Below are positions 2,006 to 44,786 of a stretch of 64,000 nucleotides of DNA, piece by piece (the stretch's first letter is position 1; the number at the start of each line of letters is the position of its first letter). The stretch is taken from positions 109,976 to 173,975 of the forward strand of contig CALXTE010000001.1 in assembly GCA_944391345.1 (NCBI GenBank). The letters are read 5' to 3'. The notes below the pieces were generated by a model, which searched no databases, was not told the origin of the DNA, and saw only the letters and a list, made by a program, of their open reading frames with translations. Origin of the DNA: an uncultured Alphaproteobacteria bacterium (GTDB lineage Bacteria; Pseudomonadota; Alphaproteobacteria; RF32; CAG-239). The translations under genes were made by a program, and so were the position numbers.

Positions 2006-3130
2006 GTGAAAAAAGAAAGCAAGGACACCGCCGCCAAAAGCAAAAAATCTGAAGCGATTGATAGTAAAAAAATCGAAAAAGAGGAAAATGCGGCAAGCAA
2101 AGTTGAAGAAGATAAAACTTTGGATAACGACGGTCGTGTCGGTACAATGCTGAGAGAAACCCGCCTAAAAAAAGGCGAAGAGGTTGAAGAAATCGCAGAA
2201 AAATTAAAAATCAGAGCCTTCTATCTAAGGGCGATTGAAGACAGTAAATATGATGAAATCCCCGAAGCGCCTTATGGCCCCGGATTTGTTCGCTCCTATG
2301 CAGATTACTTGGGGCTAAACGCCATTCGCATGGCTCAGTTATATAAAGAAGAAACCGAAGCCCACGAAAATAAAGGAAACTATTATGTATTAGAACCACA
2401 GGCAGAAGGTACTGCCCCTGGGGGAAAATATATTGTCATAAGTCTACTGGCTTTGGTTTTGGTTTATGCCGGTTGGAGCTACTACACATCAATCCAAGAA
2501 AATCTAACGGTCGAAAAACCGGCTCCTGTTGCTGAAAATGCAGCCGTAGACTATCCGCTTCAGGTTGAGAGCTTTGAACAAACAACGGAAGAGATTTCTT
2601 CTCCGGCTGACGAAGCTTTGCCTTTGATTAATGTCGATTCGAGCGCAGAGCAGGGAACACCTCAGGTCGTAATGACGGAATCAAGCTTTGTTGAAGAACC
2701 GGCAAAAGCTGAAGCGGTAAAGCCGGAAACAACCGAGCCGACAAAACAAGAAGCTCCGAAAGAGGAAGTCAAAAAAGAAGAACCTAAGGTAGAGCCGGTT
2801 AAAACAGAAACTTCTGAAAAAAAAGAAGTTGAAAAGAAAGAAGAGGTAAAACCATCTGAACCAGAGATTGATACCGACGTTCCGGTTGTGGTAAAAATCA
2901 AAAAAGAAACATGGTTTGAAGCTAAAGATAACGAAACCTTGTACATCAGCAAAGTCGTTGATAACGGATTCGTTTACAATGTGCCTGAAAAAGAAGGCAT
3001 GATAATTTCTGTCGGTCGTGTTGATGCTGCAGACGTTTACGTAAACGGCAAATTAACAACAGTCTTTACAGCAAAGAAAAAAACTGGTATTAAGGTTGAC
3101 GACGTATTAGAAGAAGCCGACAACCGGTAG
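2006..3130 (+). CDS. rodZ: RodZ-like cytoskeleton/HTH membrane protein
   Basis: GTG start with SD aagga about 8 nt upstream. N-terminal HTH (VGTMLRETRLKKGEEVEEIAEKLKIRAFYLRAIE...GFVRSYADYLGL), one TM (YIVISLLALVLVYAGW), a Lys/Glu/Pro-rich linker and a C-terminal beta domain. Sits upstream of ispG-hisS as in the rodZ-ispG-hisS cluster. Confidence 0.7.
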   Translation: MKKESKDTAAKSKKSEAIDSKKIEKEENAASKVEEDKTLDNDGRVGTMLRETRLKKGEEVEEIAEKLKIRAFYLRAIEDSKYDEIPEAPYGPGFVRSYADYLGLNAIRMAQLYKEETEAHENKGNYYVLEPQAEGTAPGGKYIVISLLALVLVYAGWSYYTSIQENLTVEKPAPVAENAAVDYPLQVESFEQTTEEISSPADEALPLINVDSSAEQGTPQVVMTESSFVEEPAKAEAVKPETTEPTKQEAPKEEVKKEEPKVEPVKTETSEKKEVEKKEEVKPSEPEIDTDVPVVVKIKKETWFEAKDNETLYISKVVDNGFVYNVPEKEGMIISVGRVDAADVYVNGKLTTVFTAKKKTGIKVDDVLEEADNR

Positions 3131-3148
3131 CAAATTTTTTTGACAAGA

Positions 3149-3184
3149 AGAAAATAGCAGGTTAAAGGCTTGCTATTTTCTTTT
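3149..3184 (+). terminator. Rho-independent terminator after rodZ
   Basis: Perfect 11-bp stem agaaaatagca / tgctattttct followed by a T-run. Confidence 0.6.
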
Positions 3185-3203
3185 GTTATAAAAGGAGAGA
3201 AAA

Positions 3204-4271
3204 ATGGAAAAAATCATTCGCCGCAAGAGCCGTCAGATTATGGTCGGAAAAGTTGCCGTCGGGGGCAATGCTCCGATAAGTGTTCAGTCGATGACCAATA
3301 CCTTGACCTCAGATGTAAAGGCCACGGTTGAGCAGATAAAAAGACAAGAAGCCGTTGGCTGCGATATCACCCGCTGTTCTTGTCCGGATAAAGATTCGGC
3401 TTATGCATTAAAGGAAATTACCAAACAGGTTAATATTCCGATTGTGGCGGATATCCATTTTGATTATCGCTTAGGAATTTTGGCGGCTGAAAACGGAGCC
3501 GCTTGTTTGAGAATAAACCCTGGAAATATAGGCTCAAGCGATAGAGTTAAAGAGGTTGTTAAGGCGGCAAAAGATTATGGCTGTTCGATTCGTATTGGCG
3601 TAAACGGTGGTTCTTTGGATAAAAGATTGTTAGAAAAATATGGAGAACCTTGTGCCGATGCTATGGTTGAGAGCGCTTTGGAACAAGCCAAAATGCTTGA
3701 GGACAACGACTTTAGAGAGTTTAAGATTAGTGTAAAGTCCTCAAATACTTTGATGATGATAGACGCTTATCGCAAACTGGCGGCGGCTTGTGATTATCCT
3801 TTGCATTTGGGTGTGACTGAAGCCGGAGGTTTAAGAACAGGAACTGTTAAGTCTGCTTTGGGAATTGGCGCGTTGCTGATGGACGGCATTGGTGATACCT
3901 TGCGCGTTTCGCTAACTGCTGATGTTGAAGAGGAAGTAAAAGTCGGTTACGAGATTTTGAAGGCGCTGGATTTACGACACCGTGGGGTTAGGATAATTTC
4001 TTGCCCAACCTGCGCCCGCCGTGGTTATGATGTTCAAAAGACGGTTGAAGAATTAGAACGCCGCTTGTCTCATGTCAGCCAGCCGCTGACCTTGGCGGTT
4101 ATGGGCTGCGTGGTTAACGGACCGGGGGAGGCCGCACACGCCGACTTTGGCGTTTGTGGTGGTCATGATGAAAATATGCTCTTTATCAAGGGCAAACCGG
4201 CAAGAAAAGTCAAAGATGAAGATATTGTCGATGAATTAGTAAAGTTAGTTGAAGAAAAAATATCAGCTTAG
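3204..4271 (+). CDS. ispG: 4-hydroxy-3-methylbut-2-en-1-yl diphosphate synthase (GcpE)
   Basis: [17 protein letters not shown] and GCVVNGPGE motifs (Fe-S cysteines); length typical of the family. Confidence 0.95.
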
Positions 4272-7620: not shown

Positions 7621-8475
7621 TTGTCTGAGCTAGATTGTTATGATTTACCTTTTGCCACGGATAACGCCGAATTATTACCCGGCGGCTCTCGTTCTCGCGG
7701 ATACAAGATAAATGGTTGGATAGTAAGAGTTCCTACAAAAAAAGAATTTTTACTTGAACAACAACGTGAAGCAGCCATTTCTAGTGTACTACATCAAGCA
7801 TTACTCGAAAAATTAAAAAATAAAGTTACCTATATTCATTTTAACGGAAAATGCTCTTTTCATAAAGAAATTATGGGTGAATCTTTGCATAAGGTTTATA
7901 AAGATATGAGTACAGAGCAACGAAAAGATTTAGCCAAAGATATTGCTGAATTATTATGTGCAATTCATAATATTTCTCTCCCTAAAATAAATAAGGCGCT
8001 AGAACAATATCCAAAGAAATGTCGTAATGAAAATAAAACCAATTTAACGGATTTTAATTACAACATAGCAAAAGAGCAGCTTCTTGCATGTAGCTCGGGA
8101 AGAATCAATCTGGATAATTTCAAAACGACGATTCCTACGGACGGATTGGCATTATGCCATAATGACTTGCATGATGAAAATATAATCATTAATAATGAAG
8201 GCAAACTTTCAGGTTTTATTGACTTTGGAGAAGCAGGTATTAATCCAAGAATCACGGATTTTTTCCATATCTATCGACTGGATAGAAAGCTAATGATAAA
8301 TATTATTAACGAGTATAATAAAATTTCTGATTATAAAATTGATGTGCAAGCCACGGATTATCAATTTTTGAGTAACACCGGATATACTTTAGAACAACGC
8401 AAAAACAGACCTACATTTAAACCTGAAGTGATCAGAGTTTTGCAGAATAATGCTTTTTTCTTAAACATCCGATAA
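7621..8475 (+). CDS. APH/choline-kinase-fold phosphotransferase, second tandem copy
   Basis: TTG start with SD gagga 7 nt upstream. CHNDLHDENIIIN...GFIDFGEAG. Confidence 0.65.
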   Translation: MSELDCYDLPFATDNAELLPGGSRSRGYKINGWIVRVPTKKEFLLEQQREAAISSVLHQALLEKLKNKVTYIHFNGKCSFHKEIMGESLHKVYKDMSTEQRKDLAKDIAELLCAIHNISLPKINKALEQYPKKCRNENKTNLTDFNYNIAKEQLLACSSGRINLDNFKTTIPTDGLALCHNDLHDENIIINNEGKLSGFIDFGEAGINPRITDFFHIYRLDRKLMINIINEYNKISDYKIDVQATDYQFLSNTGYTLEQRKNRPTFKPEVIRVLQNNAFFLNIR

Positions 8476-8658: not shown

Positions 8659-9492
8659 CTATCGTTCAAAATCTTTATTTTGAGTCAAAATTTTAGAAGG
8701 GGGATTATCCTTCTGATAGTTTAAGAAATTTTGATGATGATATTCATCAACTTGTTCGTCTTTTATTTTGATTGTTCCGAGCTTGGCTTTTTTCATCGGA
8801 TTTTCGGCTTCTAACAATCTTTTGCAAACTTCGGTAGAAACAATACCGCAAACACCTTGTCTTCGGCAAATCGGTTTATCATTTTGAAAAGTGTCAACCT
8901 CGACGCCAAAGGGCTTAAAGAAATCTTTTAAATAAGACAATGTCATACTTATTTCTTCCGAATAATCGAGCTTTTCCGAATAATTCGGGTCTTTTTTATC
9001 CCTTTGAGCGTGTTGTTCTAAAATCATAATATCAACATGATTTTTTTCTTTTTGAGAGTCAATACATAAAGCCACGCCATGCGCTTCTTTCCCCTCACTT
9101 ATTATTGTCAGGGGTGTAACCAATCTTTGTTGGTCAACATCAATATCTTTTCTTGCTAATGTTTGGCTTGTTATACCTAAAATATTTGTAAGGATAGAAT
9201 ATTGATTTTCTTTAGGAACGATAGCAATTTCACCGGTCATCATTTTACGACCGTTGCAACACTCATCTATTAAATAATCATCAGCTTTATCGCCATCTTC
9301 TGAACATAAGAGCGCATATTTTCCTGTGTCTAAAAAGGAACAATCCTCTTGAGATTGAGCTATTTTGGAAGCGATGTAATTAGTTGCTTGCCAATTATAA
9401 CCCTCTTTCGGAATATCTAAGGTAATGTTAGGTTTCCGTGTAAGATTTTCATGGGCATTTTTATCTAACGTCAAATAAGGTTTATGTGCCAT
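8659..9492 (-). CDS. Hypothetical protein, candidate CE-clan (Ulp1/ChlaDUB-like) cysteine protease
   Basis: AHGVALCIDSQKEKNHVDIMIL ... FQNDKPIC gives H138, D154, Q203 and C209. The spacing (16/49/6) resembles Ulp1 H514-D531-Q574-C580 as recalled. No search was run. Confidence 0.45.
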   Translation of the reverse strand: MAHKPYLTLDKNAHENLTRKPNITLDIPKEGYNWQATNYIASKIAQSQEDCSFLDTGKYALLCSEDGDKADDYLIDECCNGRKMMTGEIAIVPKENQYSILTNILGITSQTLARKDIDVDQQRLVTPLTIISEGKEAHGVALCIDSQKEKNHVDIMILEQHAQRDKKDPNYSEKLDYSEEISMTLSYLKDFFKPFGVEVDTFQNDKPICRRQGVCGIVSTEVCKRLLEAENPMKKAKLGTIKIKDEQVDEYHHQNFLNYQKDNPPSKILTQNKDFER

Positions 9493-36256: not shown

Positions 36257-37252
36257 TTAAATCCCTTCGCCTTTATACGGACGAGATAAAAGTTTTTCTA
36301 ATGCAGAATTAAGCGGTAGATTTTCAAACAAAATATGATTCATCATTTCACAAATCGGCATTTCTACGCCAAGAGTTTGGGCACGCTTAACCACAGCTTT
36401 GGCGGTAGCAATACCTTCGACAGTGCGTTTGTTTTCTTGAAGTGGCTTTTCGGCACTGCCGCAAACCCCGATTTCATAACCAAAACTAAAATTGCGCGAC
36501 TGCATACAGTTTGCGGTTAAGACCAAGTCACCCAAGCCGCACATTCCCATAAGCGACTGAAAATCACCACCCATAGCTTTGGATAAGCGTGCCATTTCGG
36601 CAAATCCGCGTGTAATCAGCGCCGCTCGTGCACTGTCGCCCAATGCCGCCCCTTCAACAATACCCGAGGCAATAGCAATCACATTTTTGACACTTCCTCC
36701 GATTTGCGGAGAGATAATATCTGACGTGGTATAAGGACGAAAATAAGTCGTTCCGAGCTGCTTGGTTAAAGCCGTTGCCACCGACAAATCTTGACAACCG
36801 ATTGTGACGGACACAAATTTTCTTTGCGCCAAATCAAGCGCAAACCCAGGGCCGGATAAAATCGCCGTGATTGTATTAGGAGCTTCTTCTTGCACGACTT
36901 CGGAAAGGAGCTTTCCGCTCTCAGCCTCAATTCCTTTGGCGCAAAGCACTAAAACCGTGTTTGTTTTCAGGTAAAGTTTCATTTGTTGCAAAACCGAACG
37001 TGTGGCTTGAGCCGAAGTTGTAAGCAGCACCACATCGGCAAATTCAAAAACCTCTTGCGGATTTTCGGTTGCTTTGATTGCATCCGGCAGAGGAATGTTT
37101 GGCAAATAAGCCTTGTTCAGATGAAAATGATTGATTGAATCAATCACATCTTTTTTGCGCGCCCAGCCCAAGACCTCATTTCCGGCGCGTGCCGCCGTCA
37201 GCGCCAAAGCCGTTCCCCAAATTCCGGTTCCGATTATTCCGATTTTTTGCAT
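36257..37252 (-). CDS. gpsA: NAD(P)H-dependent glycerol-3-phosphate dehydrogenase
   Basis: IGIIGTGIWGTALA, GPGFA, KNVIAIASGIVEG. Confidence 0.92.
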   Translation of the reverse strand: MQKIGIIGTGIWGTALALTAARAGNEVLGWARKKDVIDSINHFHLNKAYLPNIPLPDAIKATENPQEVFEFADVVLLTTSAQATRSVLQQMKLYLKTNTVLVLCAKGIEAESGKLLSEVVQEEAPNTITAILSGPGFALDLAQRKFVSVTIGCQDLSVATALTKQLGTTYFRPYTTSDIISPQIGGSVKNVIAIASGIVEGAALGDSARAALITRGFAEMARLSKAMGGDFQSLMGMCGLGDLVLTANCMQSRNFSFGYEIGVCGSAEKPLQENKRTVEGIATAKAVVKRAQTLGVEMPICEMMNHILFENLPLNSALEKLLSRPYKGEGI

Positions 37253-37327
37253 AATAACCCCGTCTTTTTAGTAAATAATAAACTATAATAAACCGAAAGA
37301 GCAGAAAAGCAACAAATTAATCATAAG

Positions 37328-37356
37328 CAAAAAGGCATCACGGTTTAGGTGATGCC
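37328..37356 (-). terminator. Rho-independent terminator for the 89-aa ORF
   Basis: Stem ggcatcac / gtgatgcc; T-run on the minus strand. Confidence 0.55.
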
Positions 37357-37408
37357 TTTTCTTAAAGCCAAAAATTTAGGTTATTGAATATAAAACGAGG
37401 AGCTGTGC

Positions 37409-37678
37409 TTAAGAGGCCGGAGAAATCTGCCTCGGACGCTCTAAAAAGTGGATTGCGCGCTCAGCTAAAGCCAACACCTTTGCCGAAGCCGCTTTTTCTT
37501 TATCAATCACTTTCCAGACCAACAACTTGCAGCGGAACAAAAAGTCCAAATCTCTGTTACGCTGAGGATTACCGGCAAAAACCTGAAACTTTTCTTTTAA
37601 CACCGCCGGCGTAACACTCTTTTGATTCTGCACAAAACTCAAAACATTAAATAACGAAATTCTTGTTTCCATAATCAT
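37409..37678 (-). CDS. Hypothetical small protein (89 aa)
   Basis: ORF followed by its own terminator; no motif recognised. Confidence 0.45.
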   Translation of the reverse strand: MIMETRISLFNVLSFVQNQKSVTPAVLKEKFQVFAGNPQRNRDLDFLFRCKLLVWKVIDKEKAASAKVLALAERAIHFLERPRQISPAS

Positions 37679-37806
37679 ATAAATTTAAAGTAAGACATAA
37701 AAATACAAATGTCTTATCTTTATAAAAGATTTTGTTAAAAAGTCAATTTGTTTTTTGTCGAATAATGCCAACCATTACTTGCCAAGCAGACAAGGTGAAA
37801 TAAGAC

Positions 37807-38568
37807 TTATTTTAATGTTCTTTTACCGCGGAATGAACCGATTTCAAATCCGCCGTCACAATCTAAAACATAGTCATAAAGCACTTTAACCGCAGCAAGT
37901 TTTTGCTTTTTACTTTTAGCCTCAAAACAAAGCATTAATTTATCACAAAAATCTTTTTCGGGCATTTTTGTGATATGATATCTTTCGGCAAAATCTTTAT
38001 CGGTCAAAATCGGCTCAATTTTGCTGTGCGGAACATGGGGCAGATTGCAAAAATCATAATAAGCGGATATTAATGCATCAACCAAAAGCCAATATTGCAG
38101 GTCAATATGAAGCTTTTTGTGATAAAGAGATTTCAGCTCGTCATACCTATCCCACAAATAATATTTAATAAAGCTTTTATCATAATCAGAAAGCGGTTCA
38201 AAAGGTTTTTGAATCTGAGCTAAGGCTTTTTTCTGAAGTTTTTTAATTTCACCATGACAATCAAAAAGAATTTTACCGTAAAAAATTAAATTTTGCGAGG
38301 TGTGACTATGCTCTTTAAATGATTCGTCCATATATTTTTCAAAACGCCAAATCGGATTGATAATATATTCAATAAGAAAGCCATCAACAAAGCAGTTAGA
38401 TTTTTCTTGCCAGTTTATGTCATTAGAAGCAATGATTGTCACATCAATGTCCGAAAATTTATTTTGGTTTCCGCTGGCATAACTTCCGGACAACAAAGCC
38501 CCCTCAAACCACGGTTGATGAATATAGCGTTCCAAAAACTTATCAAGCGCGACCTTCCATTGTTTCAT
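37807..38568 (-). CDS. Nucleotidyltransferase-fold protein (KNTase/ANT-like, NTase plus helical C-domain)
   Basis: GALLSGSYASGNQNKFSDIDVTII is the G-S...D-x-D pol-beta NTase motif. ATG 38568 is preferred (SD ggag 8 nt upstream). Confidence 0.65.
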   Translation of the reverse strand: MKQWKVALDKFLERYIHQPWFEGALLSGSYASGNQNKFSDIDVTIIASNDINWQEKSNCFVDGFLIEYIINPIWRFEKYMDESFKEHSHTSQNLIFYGKILFDCHGEIKKLQKKALAQIQKPFEPLSDYDKSFIKYYLWDRYDELKSLYHKKLHIDLQYWLLVDALISAYYDFCNLPHVPHSKIEPILTDKDFAERYHITKMPEKDFCDKLMLCFEAKSKKQKLAAVKVLYDYVLDCDGGFEIGSFRGKRTLK

Positions 38569-38641
38569 TTTTAAACTCCGAATAACAAATATTATAAAAA
38601 ATATTGCCATAAGATAAGTCTAAACACAAGAGAATAAACAC

Positions 38642-40729
38642 ATGCGACAGAAAATGACGCATAAGAGCTTTATAATAAAAACATCAAACCAACAGGAGAT
38701 GTTTTTTATTATGGAAAAATTTGAACAATTTAAGTTTTTGACCTATCTGCATAATGTTTTAAAAAACAAAAGATTTTTTAAGGAGCATTTGGCAGATATT
38801 TTTGACTGGCACGATTCTCAAGGAAAAGACATCATTGCTTATTCTTGGACAACACAGGCTGAAATAGATCAATGCCTTGATTTTAAAGATATTATAAGAA
38901 TGCAAAAAAAGGAGGCCTTTCTCCGCGGGGAAAAATTCATAGAGAAAATAAATAAAAAAATAATATCTTTGAGCAAAAGCCCAAGCTCAAACTTTGAAAA
39001 ACGCCTGTACCATGTTGCCAAACTTCTGGCGCTGACCGAAACCGAACAAAAAATCTATGGTCTGTTGACCAGAATCAAAATGGATGATGATTTTGAGGCC
39101 CTTAGCCGCGAAATTTTTGGCCGCAATAACAAGCTCAAACAAAATATGTCTGCTTTTTTAGAGATAAAACAGCGAGACATAGATGTGGCTTTAGACAAGC
39201 AGTCATCTTTATTAAAATATGGTCTGATAGAAAATGACTTTTCCGGAGACATATCAGCCACGGATTTTAGTGTTAAATTGCTGTCACAAAATATAAAAAG
39301 TGTGTCAGATGTTAAAAAAGCAATTTTGGGAACACCGCGCGCTGCAAGCTTAGAATGGGATGATTTTTCGTATCTTGAAGAAAAAGATTTTTGCGCCAAG
39401 ATATTTACCAAAGCGGTTAAGAACAAAGAAAAAGGCATAAATCTGCTGTTTTACGGTGCCCCTGGAACCGGAAAAACCGAATTTGCCAAAACACTGGCTA
39501 AAAAAATAAAAGCAGAACTATACGCAATCGGAGAAATGTTTGAGGAAGATTCTCGCAAAGAAAGCCTGAACTTAGCACATTCTGTTTTGGCCAAAAATAA
39601 AAATGTTTGCTTGCTGATAGATGAGGCTGATGACTTTTTAGAACAAGAAATGGCGCTGTTTTTCCGCAGAAAAGAAAACAATAAACTTTATGTCAATCGC
39701 ATGCTTGAAAATAATCCAACGCCGACAATCTGGATTATAAATTCAATCAACGAAGCCGATAAAGCATATTTGCGTCGCTTTACTTTTGCCCTAAATTTCA
39801 GTAAGCCAAACTTACAAACCAGAATAGAAATGTGGCAAAAAAGTCTGAAAGCGCATAATCTTCCGTCAGATAAAAAAACAGCCGAAGAATTTGCCGTGCA
39901 ATATAAGCTTTCACCGTCATTTATCAGCACTGCGGTCAGAACGGCAAAGCTGGCAGATGGTGGCCTCCAAGAGGTTAAACAAAGCTTGACCTCTTTGCAA
40001 AAAGCTTATAATAACGGGCGTTTGCTGCAACCAATAAATAATAATAAAACGAACTTTAATCCAAAATTATTAAATACGGATACAGATTTAAGCCTATTAT
40101 CTGAAAGAATAAAAACGCTTCCTCAGCGTAATTTTTCTTTATGTTTGTATGGCGCGTCCGGCACGGGAAAGTCTGCCTATGGAGAATATCTGGCCCAAGA
40201 ACTTGAAATGCCGGTTATTAAGAAAAAATGCTCTGATTTATTGTCAATGTGGGTAGGGGGAACGGAGCAAAATATTGCCGAGGCTTTTAACGAGGGCAGA
40301 GAAAATCAAGCAGTTTTAATTTTTGATGAAGCCGATAGCTTTTTGCAGGATAGGAGCAATGCTGTTCGCTCGTGGGAAGTAACTCAGGTTAATGAGATGC
40401 TGACGCAAATGGAAAGCTACCCTTATCCGTTTGTTTGCACCACAAATTTAATGGAAAGCTTAGACAAAGCTAGCCTGCGACGCTTTACGTTCAAAGTCGG
40501 CTATGACTATATGACGCCCGAGCAGTCAAGCCTTGCTTTTAAGCATTTTTTTAATATTGCGAATATAGACTTGTCATATCTCAATTCACTAGCTCCCGGA
40601 GATTTTGTGGTCGTAAAGCAAAAAGCCGAGATTTTGGGACTATTAAATAATCCCGAAGAATTGATAAAAATGCTGGAGGCCGAGCAACAAAACAAAGCCC
40701 CCGTTCAGCACAAAATCGGCTTTTTGTAA
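38642..40729 (+). CDS. Tandem AAA+ ATPase with unrecognised ~260-aa N-terminal domain
   Basis: Module 1: GAPGTGKT, LLIDEADDF, AYLRRFTF. Module 2: GASGTGKS, LIFDEADSF, ASLRRFTF. The start is uncertain (38642, 38699 or 38711). Confidence 0.8.
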   Translation: MRQKMTHKSFIIKTSNQQEMFFIMEKFEQFKFLTYLHNVLKNKRFFKEHLADIFDWHDSQGKDIIAYSWTTQAEIDQCLDFKDIIRMQKKEAFLRGEKFIEKINKKIISLSKSPSSNFEKRLYHVAKLLALTETEQKIYGLLTRIKMDDDFEALSREIFGRNNKLKQNMSAFLEIKQRDIDVALDKQSSLLKYGLIENDFSGDISATDFSVKLLSQNIKSVSDVKKAILGTPRAASLEWDDFSYLEEKDFCAKIFTKAVKNKEKGINLLFYGAPGTGKTEFAKTLAKKIKAELYAIGEMFEEDSRKESLNLAHSVLAKNKNVCLLIDEADDFLEQEMALFFRRKENNKLYVNRMLENNPTPTIWIINSINEADKAYLRRFTFALNFSKPNLQTRIEMWQKSLKAHNLPSDKKTAEEFAVQYKLSPSFISTAVRTAKLADGGLQEVKQSLTSLQKAYNNGRLLQPINNNKTNFNPKLLNTDTDLSLLSERIKTLPQRNFSLCLYGASGTGKSAYGEYLAQELEMPVIKKKCSDLLSMWVGGTEQNIAEAFNEGRENQAVLIFDEADSFLQDRSNAVRSWEVTQVNEMLTQMESYPYPFVCTTNLMESLDKASLRRFTFKVGYDYMTPEQSSLAFKHFFNIANIDLSYLNSLAPGDFVVVKQKAEILGLLNNPEELIKMLEAEQQNKAPVQHKIGFL

Positions 40730-40742
40730 GGAATAAGAGCCT

Positions 40743-41561
40743 ATGGAAAATATAGAAAAGATAGAACTTCTTCAGTCTTGGTTTGATAATGGAAATTTTC
40801 AACCGCCATCAGATGCGTTTGAATCTATTCAAAATATATATTATGAACAAAATAAGATAGCAAAATTTATAAGAGATAATACTGATTTTATCGACCTGTG
40901 TCTCTCCCAAAAAAATGATTTTGATATATTAAAAAATCATCCGATTTTAGGAAATTGCGATAAAAGACATGCATTTTTTGATATTCCGTTATACCGACAT
41001 ATTAAAGTAACGGAGCCGCAATTTACCATAGCTCTGGCAGAATTTTTTAATGAAAAACAAAACCAAATAATTTGTAAAACCTTTGTTCAGTCCATTTTTA
41101 AAATCTTGCATAAAGAGGCAAACATCAATGGCACGATTATGTGCAAGTCAGAAATAAAAACAATAGATGTCCAGAACAAGAAAAACAAAAAAAGAATAGA
41201 TAATATTTTTATTTGGGACGAAAACATGCTTTGCTTGGAAGTCAAGTTTGACGCGCAGCTCTCCAACAGTCTGGAGATATATCAGGAAGAATGCCAAGCC
41301 ATAGCAAATAAACAAAATATCAAAAACATTGAATACATTGTGATAAGCAAAAAAAATCTGCAAGAAAAAATAAATAATTATATTCAAACAAAGAATAATA
41401 AACGCAAAAAAAATAAATTAAAAATTTGGTGCAATTTATTGTGGCAAGATGTTCTAAAAATATGGGAAGAAGAAATTATCAAACAAAACATTAATGAAGA
41501 TTCGGATATCAAAAGATACAGAACTTCACTATGGTATAAAGTATTAAACAAGGAGGCATAA
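40743..41561 (+). CDS. Putative PD-(D/E)xK nuclease-fold protein
   Basis: KRIDNIFIWDENMLCLEVKFDAQLSNSLEIYQ gives a D ... E-x-K ... QL..Y pattern. Confidence 0.45.
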   Translation: MENIEKIELLQSWFDNGNFQPPSDAFESIQNIYYEQNKIAKFIRDNTDFIDLCLSQKNDFDILKNHPILGNCDKRHAFFDIPLYRHIKVTEPQFTIALAEFFNEKQNQIICKTFVQSIFKILHKEANINGTIMCKSEIKTIDVQNKKNKKRIDNIFIWDENMLCLEVKFDAQLSNSLEIYQEECQAIANKQNIKNIEYIVISKKNLQEKINNYIQTKNNKRKKNKLKIWCNLLWQDVLKIWEEEIIKQNINEDSDIKRYRTSLWYKVLNKEA

Positions 41562-41563
41562 AG

Positions 41564-42139
41564 ATGTCAATCAACATACCTGAAACGGTAAAAAAATATT
41601 ATGAAACGGAAGAAAACGGCAAAGCAATAAATTTGTTGAGAGAAAACAATTTGATTGGAAAAACATTAAAAGAAAAAGAACAATGCTATAAAGCCAACTT
41701 ATTTGTTGAACATTTTTTATTTGATATGTGGAATTTTAGATACCAAATTTTCAAAGAAGTATGGAGCCCTTTGCTGGAAGAAAATCAAATAAAAGAATAT
41801 GAATGCGATATTGAAGACGCAGACTACTATTTTGTAGTGAAATACGAAATAAAAGAAAATATATATTATTTTGGAATATGCAATTTAGCCCCGGGAGATG
41901 ATAAATTATTTATGGTAGCCTCTCATATTAACGAAGACGGACAAGAAGAAAATTTAGGGGACGAAAAACAAGTTAAAGCCTATGCTCTCCAAAACAGAGA
42001 ATATGATGAAGAAGAAGGATCTTGCACCTGTGGCGAAGAAATTTCACTAAAAAACAAAACAGAAATAACGGATGAAGAAATTGAAAAATTTAAAACTGAT
42101 GCCAAAAATATGATAAATTTTATAAAAAATAAAAGATAA
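41564..42139 (+). CDS. Hypothetical acidic protein (191 aa)
   Basis: Strong SD aggagg 7 nt upstream; starts 2 nt after the preceding stop. Confidence 0.6.
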   Translation: MSINIPETVKKYYETEENGKAINLLRENNLIGKTLKEKEQCYKANLFVEHFLFDMWNFRYQIFKEVWSPLLEENQIKEYECDIEDADYYFVVKYEIKENIYYFGICNLAPGDDKLFMVASHINEDGQEENLGDEKQVKAYALQNREYDEEEGSCTCGEEISLKNKTEITDEEIEKFKTDAKNMINFIKNKR

Positions 42140-42170
42140 ACAGGGCGATAATAAAAATCGGAGACCATGA

Positions 42171-43145
42171 ATGGCATACGAAAAAACATACGATTTACTT
42201 GATTTGGCAATATGGATGCAATCAAACCGTGAAGGCGTCAGCTTAAATGATATTGCTGAAAAATACCATGTTTCGCGCCGCACGGCGGAGCGTATGCGTG
42301 ATATGATTATCACTCGATTTCCGCAAGCCGAAGAAATTATTTGCGAAAACAATCAAAAACGCTGGTACATCCCGCAAGGGACATTAAAGGATTTGATAAA
42401 CTTTTCTGCCGAAGAATTATCGGCATTAGAAACAGCTAAAGAGTTGTTTGAAAATAAGCAAATGACCGAAAAACAGTTTGTTCTTGATAAAGTTATAGCA
42501 AAAATTAAAGCTTGTATAAAACCCGATGTAATCAGACGGATTGAACCCGATACCGAAGCTTTGCTTGAAGCTGAAGGCTTTATTTGCCGCCCCGGACCAA
42601 GACTTGTGATAGATGAAAAGATTATCGCTACGATTCGCCAAGCCATTTTGGAATGTCGGAAGATTAAAATTAAATATTACAATAAGAACAGCGGAAAAAT
42701 TAGTACCAATACTCTTAACCCTTATGGTTTTCTTTATGGTGAGCGCAATCACTACTTGGTTGCTCATCATGCCGATGGATATTTTGGAAATGAAGTTCAT
42801 AACTTTATTTTGAGCAATATTCGAGAAGTGGAAATATTAAACAGTGTAATTGAAAACTTGCCTGATTTTAACTTGCAGAAATATGCTGAAGAATCATTTG
42901 GTGCTTATCACGAAGAGCCTTTCGAAGTTGAATGGTTGTTTGATAAAGAAGTATCGGAAGAAGCATCTCACTATATTTTTCACCCCACACAAACCATAAC
43001 TAAAAATCCGGACGGAACATTAACCGTTAAATTCAGAGCCGGCGGTAGATTAGAAATGGATTGGCATCTTTATACATGGGGCAATCATGTAAAAATCATC
43101 AAACCGGAGAATTGGTATAAGAAAAAAATAAAGGACATAAGATAA
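42171..43145 (+). CDS. HTH-WYL-WCX transcriptional regulator (BrxR/CapW/PafBC-like architecture)
   Basis: N-terminal HTH GVSLNDIAEKYHVSRRTAERMRDMI. WYL-type core IKIKYYNKNSGKISTNTLNPYGFLYGERNHYLVAHH. C-terminal WHLYTWGNHVKIIKPENW. Confidence 0.75.
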   Translation: MAYEKTYDLLDLAIWMQSNREGVSLNDIAEKYHVSRRTAERMRDMIITRFPQAEEIICENNQKRWYIPQGTLKDLINFSAEELSALETAKELFENKQMTEKQFVLDKVIAKIKACIKPDVIRRIEPDTEALLEAEGFICRPGPRLVIDEKIIATIRQAILECRKIKIKYYNKNSGKISTNTLNPYGFLYGERNHYLVAHHADGYFGNEVHNFILSNIREVEILNSVIENLPDFNLQKYAEESFGAYHEEPFEVEWLFDKEVSEEASHYIFHPTQTITKNPDGTLTVKFRAGGRLEMDWHLYTWGNHVKIIKPENWYKKKIKDIR

Positions 43146-43245
43146 AGAAAAACAAATCCGAAGCAAGATAACCAACATATTAATTAAAGCTTTGGGCGCA
43201 ATATGTAGTGTCACCAAACTAAAATCAAATAGAAAGGAGAATAAA

Positions 43246-44259
43246 ATGGAGATACATTACTTTCAAAGATATCATTCACAAGAAAATGTTAGTACAGCAA
43301 ATACTATGTTGTTATTTTCAAGACTCTATAGCCATTCTTCTTCCAAATTTTACAATTTAATAGAGAATATATTAGAAGAAGAATATGAACCCTTAAATTT
43401 TGAATTAAGTATTAAATTACAAGAAAAATCAAAAGACAGTGTGCCTGATGCGGTCATTTTTCAGCCGAGTTTTAAGATAGTTATTGAGACAAAACTTTAT
43501 AACAATTTTGGAATCAAACAACTGGAACATCATTTATCTTCTTTTCAAAACGATGGAGAAAAAATTCTCCTAACCTTAGACCCGCAAGAATTGAAAAAAG
43601 AGAAAAAACAAGCAATCAAGAATATGATTAAAACTAAAAATCCGGAAATAAAACATATTCACCTAACTTTTGAAAAACTTATTGAACTAGTTAAAAATAT
43701 AATTGATCCCAATGATGATTTTTTGGATATTGTAGAAGACTATGAAAATTATTGTTACGACGATAGCCTTATCAGCGATATGGATAAGAAATTAGATGTA
43801 CGTTTGTGCGGAACAACATATGACACAAATAAAGCACTAAATTTATATTATTGTCCAGAATCTCGCAGATATCAAAAATGCAAGTATCTAGGGTTATATA
43901 AACAAAAAGCCGTTCGTAATATAGGAGAGATTATAGCCATTGCCGTCGTAGAAGCAAAAAATGGCGACATTAATAAATTAGAATTTAGTTCAGTAGAAGG
44001 AACGCTAACAGAAGAAATGCAAGCAAATGCCAAAAAAGCATTCCAAGATGCTTCTCAATATGGCTATGATTTGACGAGATGTCCGCATCGTTTCTTTTTT
44101 GTAGACCAATTTTACGAAACATCTTATCAAAAGAAGACACCTCGCGCCCCTCAGGGTAAAAGAATTTTTAATTTACAGAAAATTTTGGAATTTGAAAATA
44201 AGACCAAACTTCCCTCGACCGCAGAAATTGCTGAATTACTAAAAACAAAAGAATGGTAA
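43246..44259 (+). CDS. PD-(D/E)xK nuclease-fold N-domain fused to an unrecognised C-domain
   Basis: VPDAVIFQPSFKIVIETKLYNNFGIKQLEHHL is a textbook PD...E-x-K. ATG 43246 is preferred (SD aaggaga 5 nt upstream) over TTG 43192. Confidence 0.6.
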   Translation: MEIHYFQRYHSQENVSTANTMLLFSRLYSHSSSKFYNLIENILEEEYEPLNFELSIKLQEKSKDSVPDAVIFQPSFKIVIETKLYNNFGIKQLEHHLSSFQNDGEKILLTLDPQELKKEKKQAIKNMIKTKNPEIKHIHLTFEKLIELVKNIIDPNDDFLDIVEDYENYCYDDSLISDMDKKLDVRLCGTTYDTNKALNLYYCPESRRYQKCKYLGLYKQKAVRNIGEIIAIAVVEAKNGDINKLEFSSVEGTLTEEMQANAKKAFQDASQYGYDLTRCPHRFFFVDQFYETSYQKKTPRAPQGKRIFNLQKILEFENKTKLPSTAEIAELLKTKEW

Positions 44260-44293
44260 TAACAAATAATACAAACAAGAAATCGATAAAACT

Positions 44294-44554
44294 ATGAATA
44301 ACGATCAAATACTTAACAAAGAACAATTTAAGAGGCTGTGTGAACATCACAAGCTGGTTCGTATTTTAACTGATGGTAAGACACTTTATGCTTGGAATGC
44401 AGAAGAAGCAGAGCATAAAGAAATCAGATCTAAGTTACATTTAAGTGACGCGTTTGTCAGTTTTTTGTTTGAAAAGGGCGTGTTATACAGCTCTATTAAT
44501 GCAGTAGGAAGTCAAAACATAAAAGAAAACCTGATAAAAAATTGGTTATCTTGA
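44294..44554 (+). CDS. Hypothetical small protein (86 aa)
   Basis: Last ORF of the same-strand cassette; weak SD. Confidence 0.45.
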   Translation: MNNDQILNKEQFKRLCEHHKLVRILTDGKTLYAWNAEEAEHKEIRSKLHLSDAFVSFLFEKGVLYSSINAVGSQNIKENLIKNWLS

Positions 44555-44674
44555 GTAATTATCCATACCAAATAAGCTAAAATCACCATAAAACACACAA
44601 CAAAGACACCTAAAATACTCTAAAAAAGTGGGACTATGGTGGGATAAATTTAAGCAAATTGATACTACAAAAAA

Positions 44675-44697
44675 GCACCCCCGAAGGGTGCTTTTTT
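44675..44697. terminator. Bidirectional terminator between the cassette and tRNA-Leu
   Basis: gcaccc-ccgaa-gggtgc flanked by an A-run and a T-run. Confidence 0.6.
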
Positions 44698-44699
44698 AA

Positions 44700-44786
44700 T
44701 GGTGCGCTAGGCCGGAATCGAACCGGCACGGGATTGCTCCCAACAGATTTTAAGTCTGCAGCGTCTACCTGTTCCGCCACAAGCGC
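44700..44786 (-). tRNA. tRNA-Leu (anticodon UAA), type II long variable arm, CCA encoded
   Basis: Hand-folded: anticodon stem-loop gcaga-ctTAAaa-tctgt, variable arm tgggagcaatcccgt, T-arm gccgg-ttcgatt-ccggc. One T-T mismatch in the acceptor stem. Confidence 0.85.

Follow-up and report, generated by a model that had tools for sequence, protein, structure and literature searches.

A DriD-like WYL regulator and a Cdc48/p97-like AAA+ ATPase form the conserved core of a low-GC island beside tRNA-Leu in an uncultured alphaproteobacterium

Introduction

WYL-domain regulators are emerging as alarms for single-stranded DNA (ssDNA) in DNA repair and phage defence, and to our knowledge their targets are largely undescribed beyond a few model species. 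DriD from Caulobacter crescentus is an ssDNA-activated activator of a response to DNA damage that is SOS-independent, and its promoter sites lie at a fixed distance from the -10 hexamer and lack a good -35 (PMC13004042). The nuclease gene bapE is strongly induced by DriD. DdaA of Acinetobacter and the Moraxellaceae also regulates CRISPR-Cas and restriction-modification (R-M) genes; the motif published for DdaA is CGWCA-N5-TGWCG, and that for DriD CGAC-N7-GTCG (PMC12392091). In Actinobacteria, the Pup-proteasome locus includes pafBC, and the proteasome removes repair proteins following damage (PMC6789036). Here we analyse positions 37807-44786 of a 64-kb window (the whole stretch of DNA that was analysed) from an uncultured alphaproteobacterium, a block holding six plus-strand genes that we letter A to F in order. 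D encodes a DriD-like WYL regulator and A a double-ring AAA+ ATPase.

The initial annotation of this block presented the six genes as one candidate defence cassette with a regulator of the BrxR/CapW type. Our comparison of related loci leads to a different arrangement, in which D and A are the conserved core and nuclease-type genes are exchanged around them. We read the locus as a WYL-controlled damage or defence island with a real chance of representing a new modular system. On balance, the island is probably induced by ssDNA through activation by D, combines an unfoldase with nucleases, and acts in conflict with mobile elements.

Linkage of A and D across genomes

One genome was scanned per species, and 563 relatives of A were confirmed, that is, at least 563 in 185,579 genomes. 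Eighty A loci were kept with their flanks, and their open reading frames (ORFs) were clustered for neighbour counts; compared loci and contigs are labelled with L-numbers (L001, L002, L094 and so on). A gene for a D-type WYL protein lies within 5 kb of A at 52 of the 80 loci, and at 30 of the 48 whose flanks reach 5 kb or more in both directions; in most cases it is immediately downstream of A or in divergent orientation to it. The A-WYL loci span Alpha-, Gamma- and Deltaproteobacteria, Planctomycetes, Nitrospirae, Binatia, Chitinispirillales and a Clostridium metagenome-assembled genome, and the adjacency is also found on annotated plasmids of Fuscovulum and Novosphingobium, where A and the WYL gene have AddAB-like pairs, HEPN and ADP-ribosylglycohydrolase genes beside them. 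By contrast, all six genes A-F occur together only in strains of this one species. The conserved core is the DriD-like WYL activator D together with the Cdc48-like ATPase A, and the proposed six-gene cassette gives way to this pair.

The regulator D and its operator

D (42171-43145, plus strand) encodes a 324-aa transcription factor of the DriD/DdaA type, with matches to Pfam HTH_11, WYL (2.3e-10) and WCX (5.5e-07) that bear out the HTH-WYL-WCX architecture first assigned to it. In a phmmer search of all PDB chains at E <= 1, residues 1-317 of D align to full-length Caulobacter DriD (8tp8; E 1.7e-53), and the recognition helix RRTAERMRD is identical in the two proteins. The other relatives recovered are PafB/PafC, which are faint (E 0.01-0.9), and no BrxR or CapW chain is among the matches, so the solved relatives of D place it with DriD instead of the anti-phage repressors to which it had been likened. 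Three residues with which DriD contacts ssDNA (K202, R204 and W206) align to E, H and F in D, and D retains the tyrosine of the (N/H)YL motif. By homology, D is predicted to be activated by ssDNA.

Alignment of the DNA upstream of A from 16 loci revealed the palindrome ACGWCA-N5-TGWCGT. In the window this corresponds to a DdaA/DriD-type operator, GCGACAGAAAATGACGC (38644-38660, plus strand), which is the predicted site for D. Its core at 38645-38659 follows the pattern CGWCA-N5-TGWCG (hereafter the box), is identical to the published DdaA consensus, and is the sole exact box match in the 64 kb. A -10 hexamer, TATAAT (38671-38676, plus strand), follows the operator core after 11 nt, and there is no -35 hexamer. 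The operator is kept about 47 nt ahead of the start of A in relatives: the 130 nt before A contain 26 boxes, in 25 of the 80 loci, against 0.33 expected (about 80-fold). Of 179 box orientations, 57 have TAnnnT at offset 11, compared with 4-12 at other offsets. This phasing matches the activator geometry of DriD promoters, and A is most probably the gene that D controls.

A box with one mismatch, CGACAAATCTTGACA, lies at 36782-36796 inside gpsA and has no TAnnnT at 11 nt. It is probably a chance match, because shuffled sequences yield about three such matches per window. A generic promoter and terminator scan was uninformative (27 sites, 28 expected).

At other loci, boxes precede WYL, MBL, DUF2779, DnaB_C/AAA_25, DUF3768 and ADP-ribosylglycohydrolase genes, and their presence before several genes therefore indicates a local multi-promoter regulon. 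Integrase-flanked elements carry four boxes per approximately 10 kb, as at 7641, 7788, 9940 and 16025 in L002, and at 9448, 15709 and 17393 in L010. The boxes of these two elements precede ADP-ribosylglycohydrolase, DnaB_C/AAA_25, DUF3768, A, MBL and WYL-operon genes, and the regulator there seems to command the entire island.

The ATPase encoded by A

A (38711-40729, plus strand) encodes a 672-aa AAA+ ATPase resembling Cdc48/p97. Two AAA modules behind an unmatched N-terminal domain had been recognised correctly, and only the length originally given, 695 aa, needed revision. The longer form begins at ATG 38642, which lies within the operator; since a ribosome-binding site (AGGAGAT) precedes 38711 and homologues of A are 672 aa, the start is placed at 38711. 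The 695-aa form returned no record on look-up and its relatives are all called as 672 aa, the length of most of the more than 1,200 relatives of A.

Pfam AAA matches the protein in two stretches (6.3e-37). Invariant residues of module 1 comprise the Walker A motif (G249-T256), Walker B (D304/E305) and arginine fingers (R355/R356), with the counterparts G481-S488, D539/E540 and R590/R591 in module 2. Both modules have aromatic pore loops, YAxG at Y271 and WVG ending at G516. The AF2 model of A (pLDDT 85.3) was compared with solved structures, as the initial annotation had advised; Foldseek returned substrate-engaged p97/Cdc48, Rix7 and NVL at E of about 4e-19, over 520-580 columns at approximately 20% identity. 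From this anatomy and modelled fold, A is predicted to be a Cdc48/p97-like protein unfoldase.

The N-terminal domain sets the family apart. Residues 1-215 are modelled as a helical domain containing a unit like a winged helix-turn-helix (wHTH). It had no family match in the domain search, and among 1.8 billion representatives it recovered A-family proteins only and no other architecture. A matches phrog_10401 over its full length (1.1e-95). In PADLOC, the best family match of the second AAA module is to IetA models (4.5e-34), and the NCBIfam model IteA reaches 100 bits, its cut-off being 510, and covers one AAA module. Iet, Dodola (DolB), MADS (mad8) and TRIP13/CBASS were rejected as identities for A, each being a partial match to a single AAA module and well short of the curated threshold.

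Genomic neighbourhood of the A-D pair

Nuclease-type genes are frequent neighbours of A, including AddAB-like pairs, RecB-like proteins and a Cas4-like DUF2779 protein, the last being the second most frequent neighbour (23 loci). Such genes are consistent with an accessory SOS-independent DNA-damage response in which D would sense ssDNA at breaks, nucleases would process the ends, and A, as a segregase, would extract trapped or spent proteins from DNA or return the response to its resting state. We regard this account as rather unlikely, though several lines of evidence suit it. DriD and DdaA, the closest characterised relatives of D, activate repair genes; the induction of bapE by DriD provides a precedent for a nuclease target; the location of pafBC in the Pup-proteasome locus, with clearance of repair proteins after damage, is a parallel for a link between a WYL regulator and an unfoldase; and related species keep the pair at the same chromosomal position. 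A repair function fits less well with nuclease cassettes that are exchanged between strains, with the low GC of the island, and with copies on integrase-flanked elements and plasmids. The conflict-type neighbours of A include GmrSD, reverse transcriptases, SIR2, HEPN, HipA, PLD, GIY-YIG, integrases and PrimPol, and the first four of these are atypical of housekeeping repair.

Some copies of the pair lie on integrase-flanked elements. A common element of this kind in the human gut has the order int-DUF3768-A-B-C-c22-MBL-WYL, and in L002 and L105-L109 the A-WYL pair has an integrase on one side and a PrimPol/DUF3987 gene on the other. Other A-WYL islands adjoin tRNA-Leu, tRNA-Met or tRNA-Pro; the tRNA-Leu of the window is also the border in L011, L024 and L093, and in L021 it is found roughly 2.8 kb upstream of A. 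These arrangements are what would be expected of an integrative-element remnant in which the WYL protein and A serve the life cycle of the element (damage induction, replication or take-over) and the remaining genes are cargo, as are the match of A to phrog_10401 and the boxes before DnaB_C/AAA_25, DUF3768, ADP-ribosylglycohydrolase and MBL genes in L002 and L010. We nevertheless consider a remnant of this kind improbable. Integrase and replication genes and att repeats are absent from the window, integrases are missing at most of the 80 loci, and A occurs at 16 loci in 2.9 million contigs of a viral collection (with A-WYL adjacency at six of the 16), compared with the at least 563 relatives found in genomes. 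A prophage was rejected separately, given that the island ORFs include no integrase or phage structural family and that A is rare in viral contigs.

Several loci depart from the common arrangement. In an Elusimicrobia subtype (L031, L033, L035-L039, L043, L044, L053 and L057), A and the WYL gene are joined by a conserved protein of about 290 aa of the PAD_porph type (agmatine/peptidyl-arginine deiminase-like) and by the small conserved proteins c14 (about 205 aa) and c17 (62 aa). L026 has one A at 2132-4150, a second on the minus strand near 12900 with a box before it, and a second WYL gene. L088 carries A twice, in each case with a DnaB_C/AAA_25 gene. The two-A loci therefore suggest duplication or tandem acquisition of the module. 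L111 (MT835507.1, 'UNVERIFIED: Bacteriophage sp.') consecutively encodes a PLD-like protein (minus strand), A, WYL-WCX, GIY-YIG, SIR2 (minus strand) and an AddB-like PDDEXK_1 protein; the stretch looks like a defence island, and the phage label of the record is unverified.

Variable slots and cargo genes

Four sister contigs of the same species (L093-L096), selected by a protein identical to E, share identical flanks in the order gpsA, an 89-aa gene, a nucleotidyltransferase gene, A, D, E, F, tRNA-Leu and psd. The slot between A and D differs among them: L094 and L096 have B-C there, and L093 and L095 have a 333-aa protein together with an MBL-RMMBL protein encoded on the minus strand. The 333-aa protein is assigned to cluster c22, whose member in L023 bears a D...E-L-K motif. 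Slots in other species are filled by PDDEXK_4, MBL-RMMBL and HNH (HNH_3) proteins, and DUF2779/Cas4-like and GIY-YIG proteins are also among the contents at other loci. The nuclease slots, which in the window hold B-C (between A and D) and E-F (following D), are exchangeable, and the content of this low-GC block beside a tRNA gene varies between strains.

A second variable slot lies upstream of A. In the window it holds a minus-strand gene with a nucleotidyltransferase fold (37807-38568/38610; 253 aa as called in sister contigs), which matches Pfam NTP_transf_2 (6.4e-05) and Polbeta (2.1e-05), and weakly MntA and PDC-S09. Position 37807, formerly taken simply as the start of the block, belongs to this seventh gene, which had not been described. 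In L001, a near-identical strain whose A is 96% identical, genes for a 326-aa protein, a 94-aa protein and a 211-aa HD-domain protein occupy the slot instead. L001 also has an extra lysine-rich gene of 346-361 aa between gpsA and the 89-aa gene. Both differences fall within 6417-9871 of L001, compared with 37250-38610 in the window.

B (40743-41561, plus strand) is the first gene of the swappable two-gene insert and encodes a 272-aa, divergent predicted nuclease of the PDDEXK_4 type. The nuclease-like motif noted at the outset proves invariant in its family (D153/E166/K168), which is small, with 10 clusters among 5.8 billion sequences. Five of the 10 members match PF14281 (PDDEXK_4), the best at 7.9e-10, and B itself has no Pfam match. 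Since hhalign comparisons of B and E with PDDEXK_4 neighbour clusters stayed below 50% probability, the assignment of B rests on the family members that match PF14281.

C (41564-42139, plus strand) always accompanies B and encodes a 191-aa protein with an isoelectric point of 4.64, in agreement with its first description as acidic. Homologues of C directly follow B in L010, L013 and L017, and proteins of 201 and 206 aa hold its position in L105 and L110. Wherever B was observed, the surroundings include A and a WYL gene, and the C position directly after B is filled. B and C co-occur at three of the 80 A loci, and E at none. The B-C pair depends on the A-D backbone.

E (43246-44259, plus strand) encodes a 337-aa cargo protein with an N-terminal motif of the PD-(D/E)xK type and a beta-rich C-terminal domain. 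Residues D68, E81, K83 and Q92, which made up the motif originally identified, are invariant in 36 sequences. The AF2 model (pLDDT 87.9) has the alpha-beta-beta-beta-alpha-beta order of a PD-(D/E)xK core. Foldseek gave no significant match for E: no PDB entry fell below E 0.016, and the restriction enzyme EcoT38I appeared with a probability of 0.47. Nuclease activity of both B and E is predicted by homology. For residues 182-310 or so of E, the best fold match, which is non-significant, is TTHA0113 (2dp9, E 0.016), a PUA/ASCH-like protein. If this resemblance is real, E could combine a nuclease with a reader of modified bases or RNA, like type IV restriction enzymes.

The E family (about 335 aa) is well conserved and found in Firmicutes and Gastranaerophilales. 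Its members elsewhere are solitary, in unrelated contexts without A, WYL or F, and sometimes beside type I R-M genes. D-E-F is thus no module, because E family members stand alone. A neighbourhood survey had been advised to see whether A-B-C and D-E-F travel together or as two modules; in the loci covered, B-C was seen only beside A and a WYL gene.

F (44294-44554, plus strand) is an 86-aa ORF that follows E in sister strains and has one weak relative beyond them, with 35% identity over 65% of F. This relative is the C-terminus of an otherwise unrelated 265-aa protein directly after A (L002, 11964-12845). None of B, C, E and F has a match in Pfam, PADLOC, NCBIfam or PHROGs. PDB searches with the single sequences of B, C and E and with an E profile gave nothing significant.

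It is very improbable that all six genes constitute one dedicated defence system under a BrxR/CapW-like repressor. Such a system would account for their shared strand and tight spacing, and for the lack of a match to any named system. It is hard to reconcile with co-occurrence confined to strains of one species, with the replacement of B-C in sister strains and the solitary E elsewhere, or with a DriD-like D whose site is placed where activators of the DriD family bind. What does hold beyond this species is the broader combination of AAA+, PD-(D/E)xK-type and WYL proteins, a theme that recurs in relatives.

Locus layout and borders

The six plus-strand ORFs (38642/38711-40729, 40743-41561, 41564-42139, 42171-43145, 43246-44259 and 44294-44554) are separated by 13, 2, 31, 100 and 34 nt, exactly as first reported, and the neighbouring gpsA is confirmed at 36257-37252 (the same gene was assigned by Pfam families in sister contigs). 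The block is the lowest-GC 7-kb stretch in the window, at 33.8% compared with 40.8% window-wide, or about 3 standard deviations under the mean. A strong contrast had been claimed from values of 17% and 60%; these came from single lines of sequence, and the low GC of the block stands at the more modest figures given here.

On the left, the minus-strand ORF at 37409-37678 encodes a basic 89-aa protein without a Pfam match. Its membership of the island is uncertain. It has an 89% identical copy in L001, and the same gene is present in L093-L096. DNA alignment to L001 is conserved as far as about 37760. On the right, the island is bordered by tRNA-Leu(UAA) (44700-44786, minus strand), which ARAGORN places with its 3' end toward the block, in agreement with the initial annotation. 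Between F and this tRNA lies a bidirectional terminator-like hairpin (44669-44697) of the form A6-stem-loop-stem-U6, with a perfect 12-bp stem, a folding energy of -18.9 kcal/mol (z -4.2) and a distance of 2 nt from the tRNA 3' end. This hairpin may end transcription of the island operon as well as that of the tRNA. No integrase is present among the ORFs of the window, and a search for att-like or direct repeats across the island found repeats at chance level only, which upholds the earlier report that both were absent.

Proposed role of the island

Computation establishes that A and D are linked, that the operator is present and phased, that A has an unfoldase-like anatomy, that the nuclease slots are exchangeable and that B-C depends on the A-D backbone; the steps that follow are modelled on homologous proteins. 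ssDNA, arising at breaks or during replication of phage or plasmid DNA, would bind the WYL domain of D. D would then bind the box in place of a -35 at the A promoter, turning on A-B-C-D, and E-F would probably be expressed by read-through from the same promoter. Positive feedback would follow, because D lies within the operon it activates. Hexamers of A may pull apart a DNA-bound or regulatory protein, the PD-(D/E)xK proteins B and E would cut nucleic acid, and the acidic C may restrain or adapt B.

A role in conflict with mobile elements is favoured by cassette swapping, low GC, the site beside a tRNA gene, the copies on integrative elements and plasmids, and the conflict-type neighbours. Several points weigh against it. 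The ligand of D may differ from that of DriD because three ssDNA contacts are substituted. The window has no box before E (or D), so that co-regulation of E is assumed, and the box pattern was not found in Elusimicrobia and several other loci. The unfoldase role is a prediction for every member of the A family. Recognised defence genes make up a few per cent of neighbour gene clusters, and the known DriD, DdaA and PafBC regulons are mainly concerned with DNA repair. Further, A-D occupies a fixed chromosomal site (gpsA ... tRNA-Leu/psd) in several related species; the initial annotation saw in conserved core synteny an argument against a defence cassette, and this argument applies in part.

We put forward more tentatively the possibility that A and D form an undescribed, phylum-spanning modular conflict system, in which an ssDNA-sensing activator, an unfoldase and interchangeable nucleases would be directed against phage or plasmid DNA-protein complexes. 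If so, bacteria would have their first example of an immune module of the 'segregase plus nuclease' kind, and a role in nucleic-acid conflict or repair would for the first time be defined for one of their p97-like ATPases. A is a candidate bacterial counterpart of eukaryotic Cdc48/p97, which strips proteins off damaged chromatin. A constant cross-phylum partner for a DriD/DdaA-type regulator, together with a phased promoter, yields a testable prediction of box, spacing and inducer. The locus is also a natural scaffold that exchanges nuclease cassettes among strains of a human-gut alphaproteobacterium, which is useful for effector discovery. Experiments are feasible, because the pair is also carried by cultured bacteria, on plasmids of Fuscovulum, Novosphingobium and Pseudomonas luteola; homologue pairs in culture include B6K69_RS17550/17555 of Fuscovulum blasticum (pRsa) and PQ457_RS22070/22075 of Novosphingobium humi.

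Comparison with known systems

PADLOC-DB v2.0.0 and NCBIfam assign no system to the island, in line with the initial failure to map it onto a named one; A is matched as generic AAA parts and D by generic WYL models. In the literature covered, which is incomplete, we found no description of the A family or of its pairing with DriD-type regulators, and the words 'AAA' and 'ATPase' are absent from the main texts of the DriD and DdaA papers covered.

D shares the HTH-WYL-WCX architecture of DriD and DdaA and the operator consensus of DdaA, and the A promoter resembles DriD promoters in having its site at a fixed distance from the -10 and no -35. It differs from both in being encoded in a low-GC island beside an AAA+ gene, and from DriD in the three changed ssDNA-contact residues.

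The PafBC/Pup-proteasome/Mpa locus of Actinobacteria is similar in that a WYL damage activator has a genomic link to an AAA+ machine that unfolds proteins. A TGTCG half-site occurs in the PafBC promoter motif, approximately 11 nt before TAnnnT. PafBC is, however, a heterodimer or fusion to which D has faint similarity, and Mpa has a single ATPase ring and acts together with a protease. Among the recurrent neighbours of A, no gene for a protease or of the Pup type is conspicuous.

BrxR and CapW belong to the same wHTH-WYL-WCX domain class as D and likewise stand beside variable conflict-type genes. They are repressors, whereas the site geometry of D is that of an activator, and the constant partner of D is one ATPase family and not diverse whole systems.

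A has the two stacked AAA modules, Walker A and B motifs, arginine fingers and aromatic pore loops of Cdc48/p97, Rix7 and NVL. The N-terminal domain of Cdc48 is a double-psi barrel, whereas that of A is helical, wHTH-like and confined to its family. The likeness to Iet lies in the second AAA module, which best fits the IetA models; A differs in having two modules and an unrelated N-terminal domain, and no IetS-like protease is present in the island.

P2 and P4 elements reportedly carry variable defence hotspots between conserved flanking genes. The island resembles these hotspots in its conserved flanks and in the short nuclease-type cassettes exchanged from strain to strain. Its flanks, however, are a regulator and the predicted target ATPase, at a chromosomal site adjacent to a tRNA gene, and not core genes of a phage or satellite, and at least one cassette, B-C, is specific to the A-D backbone.

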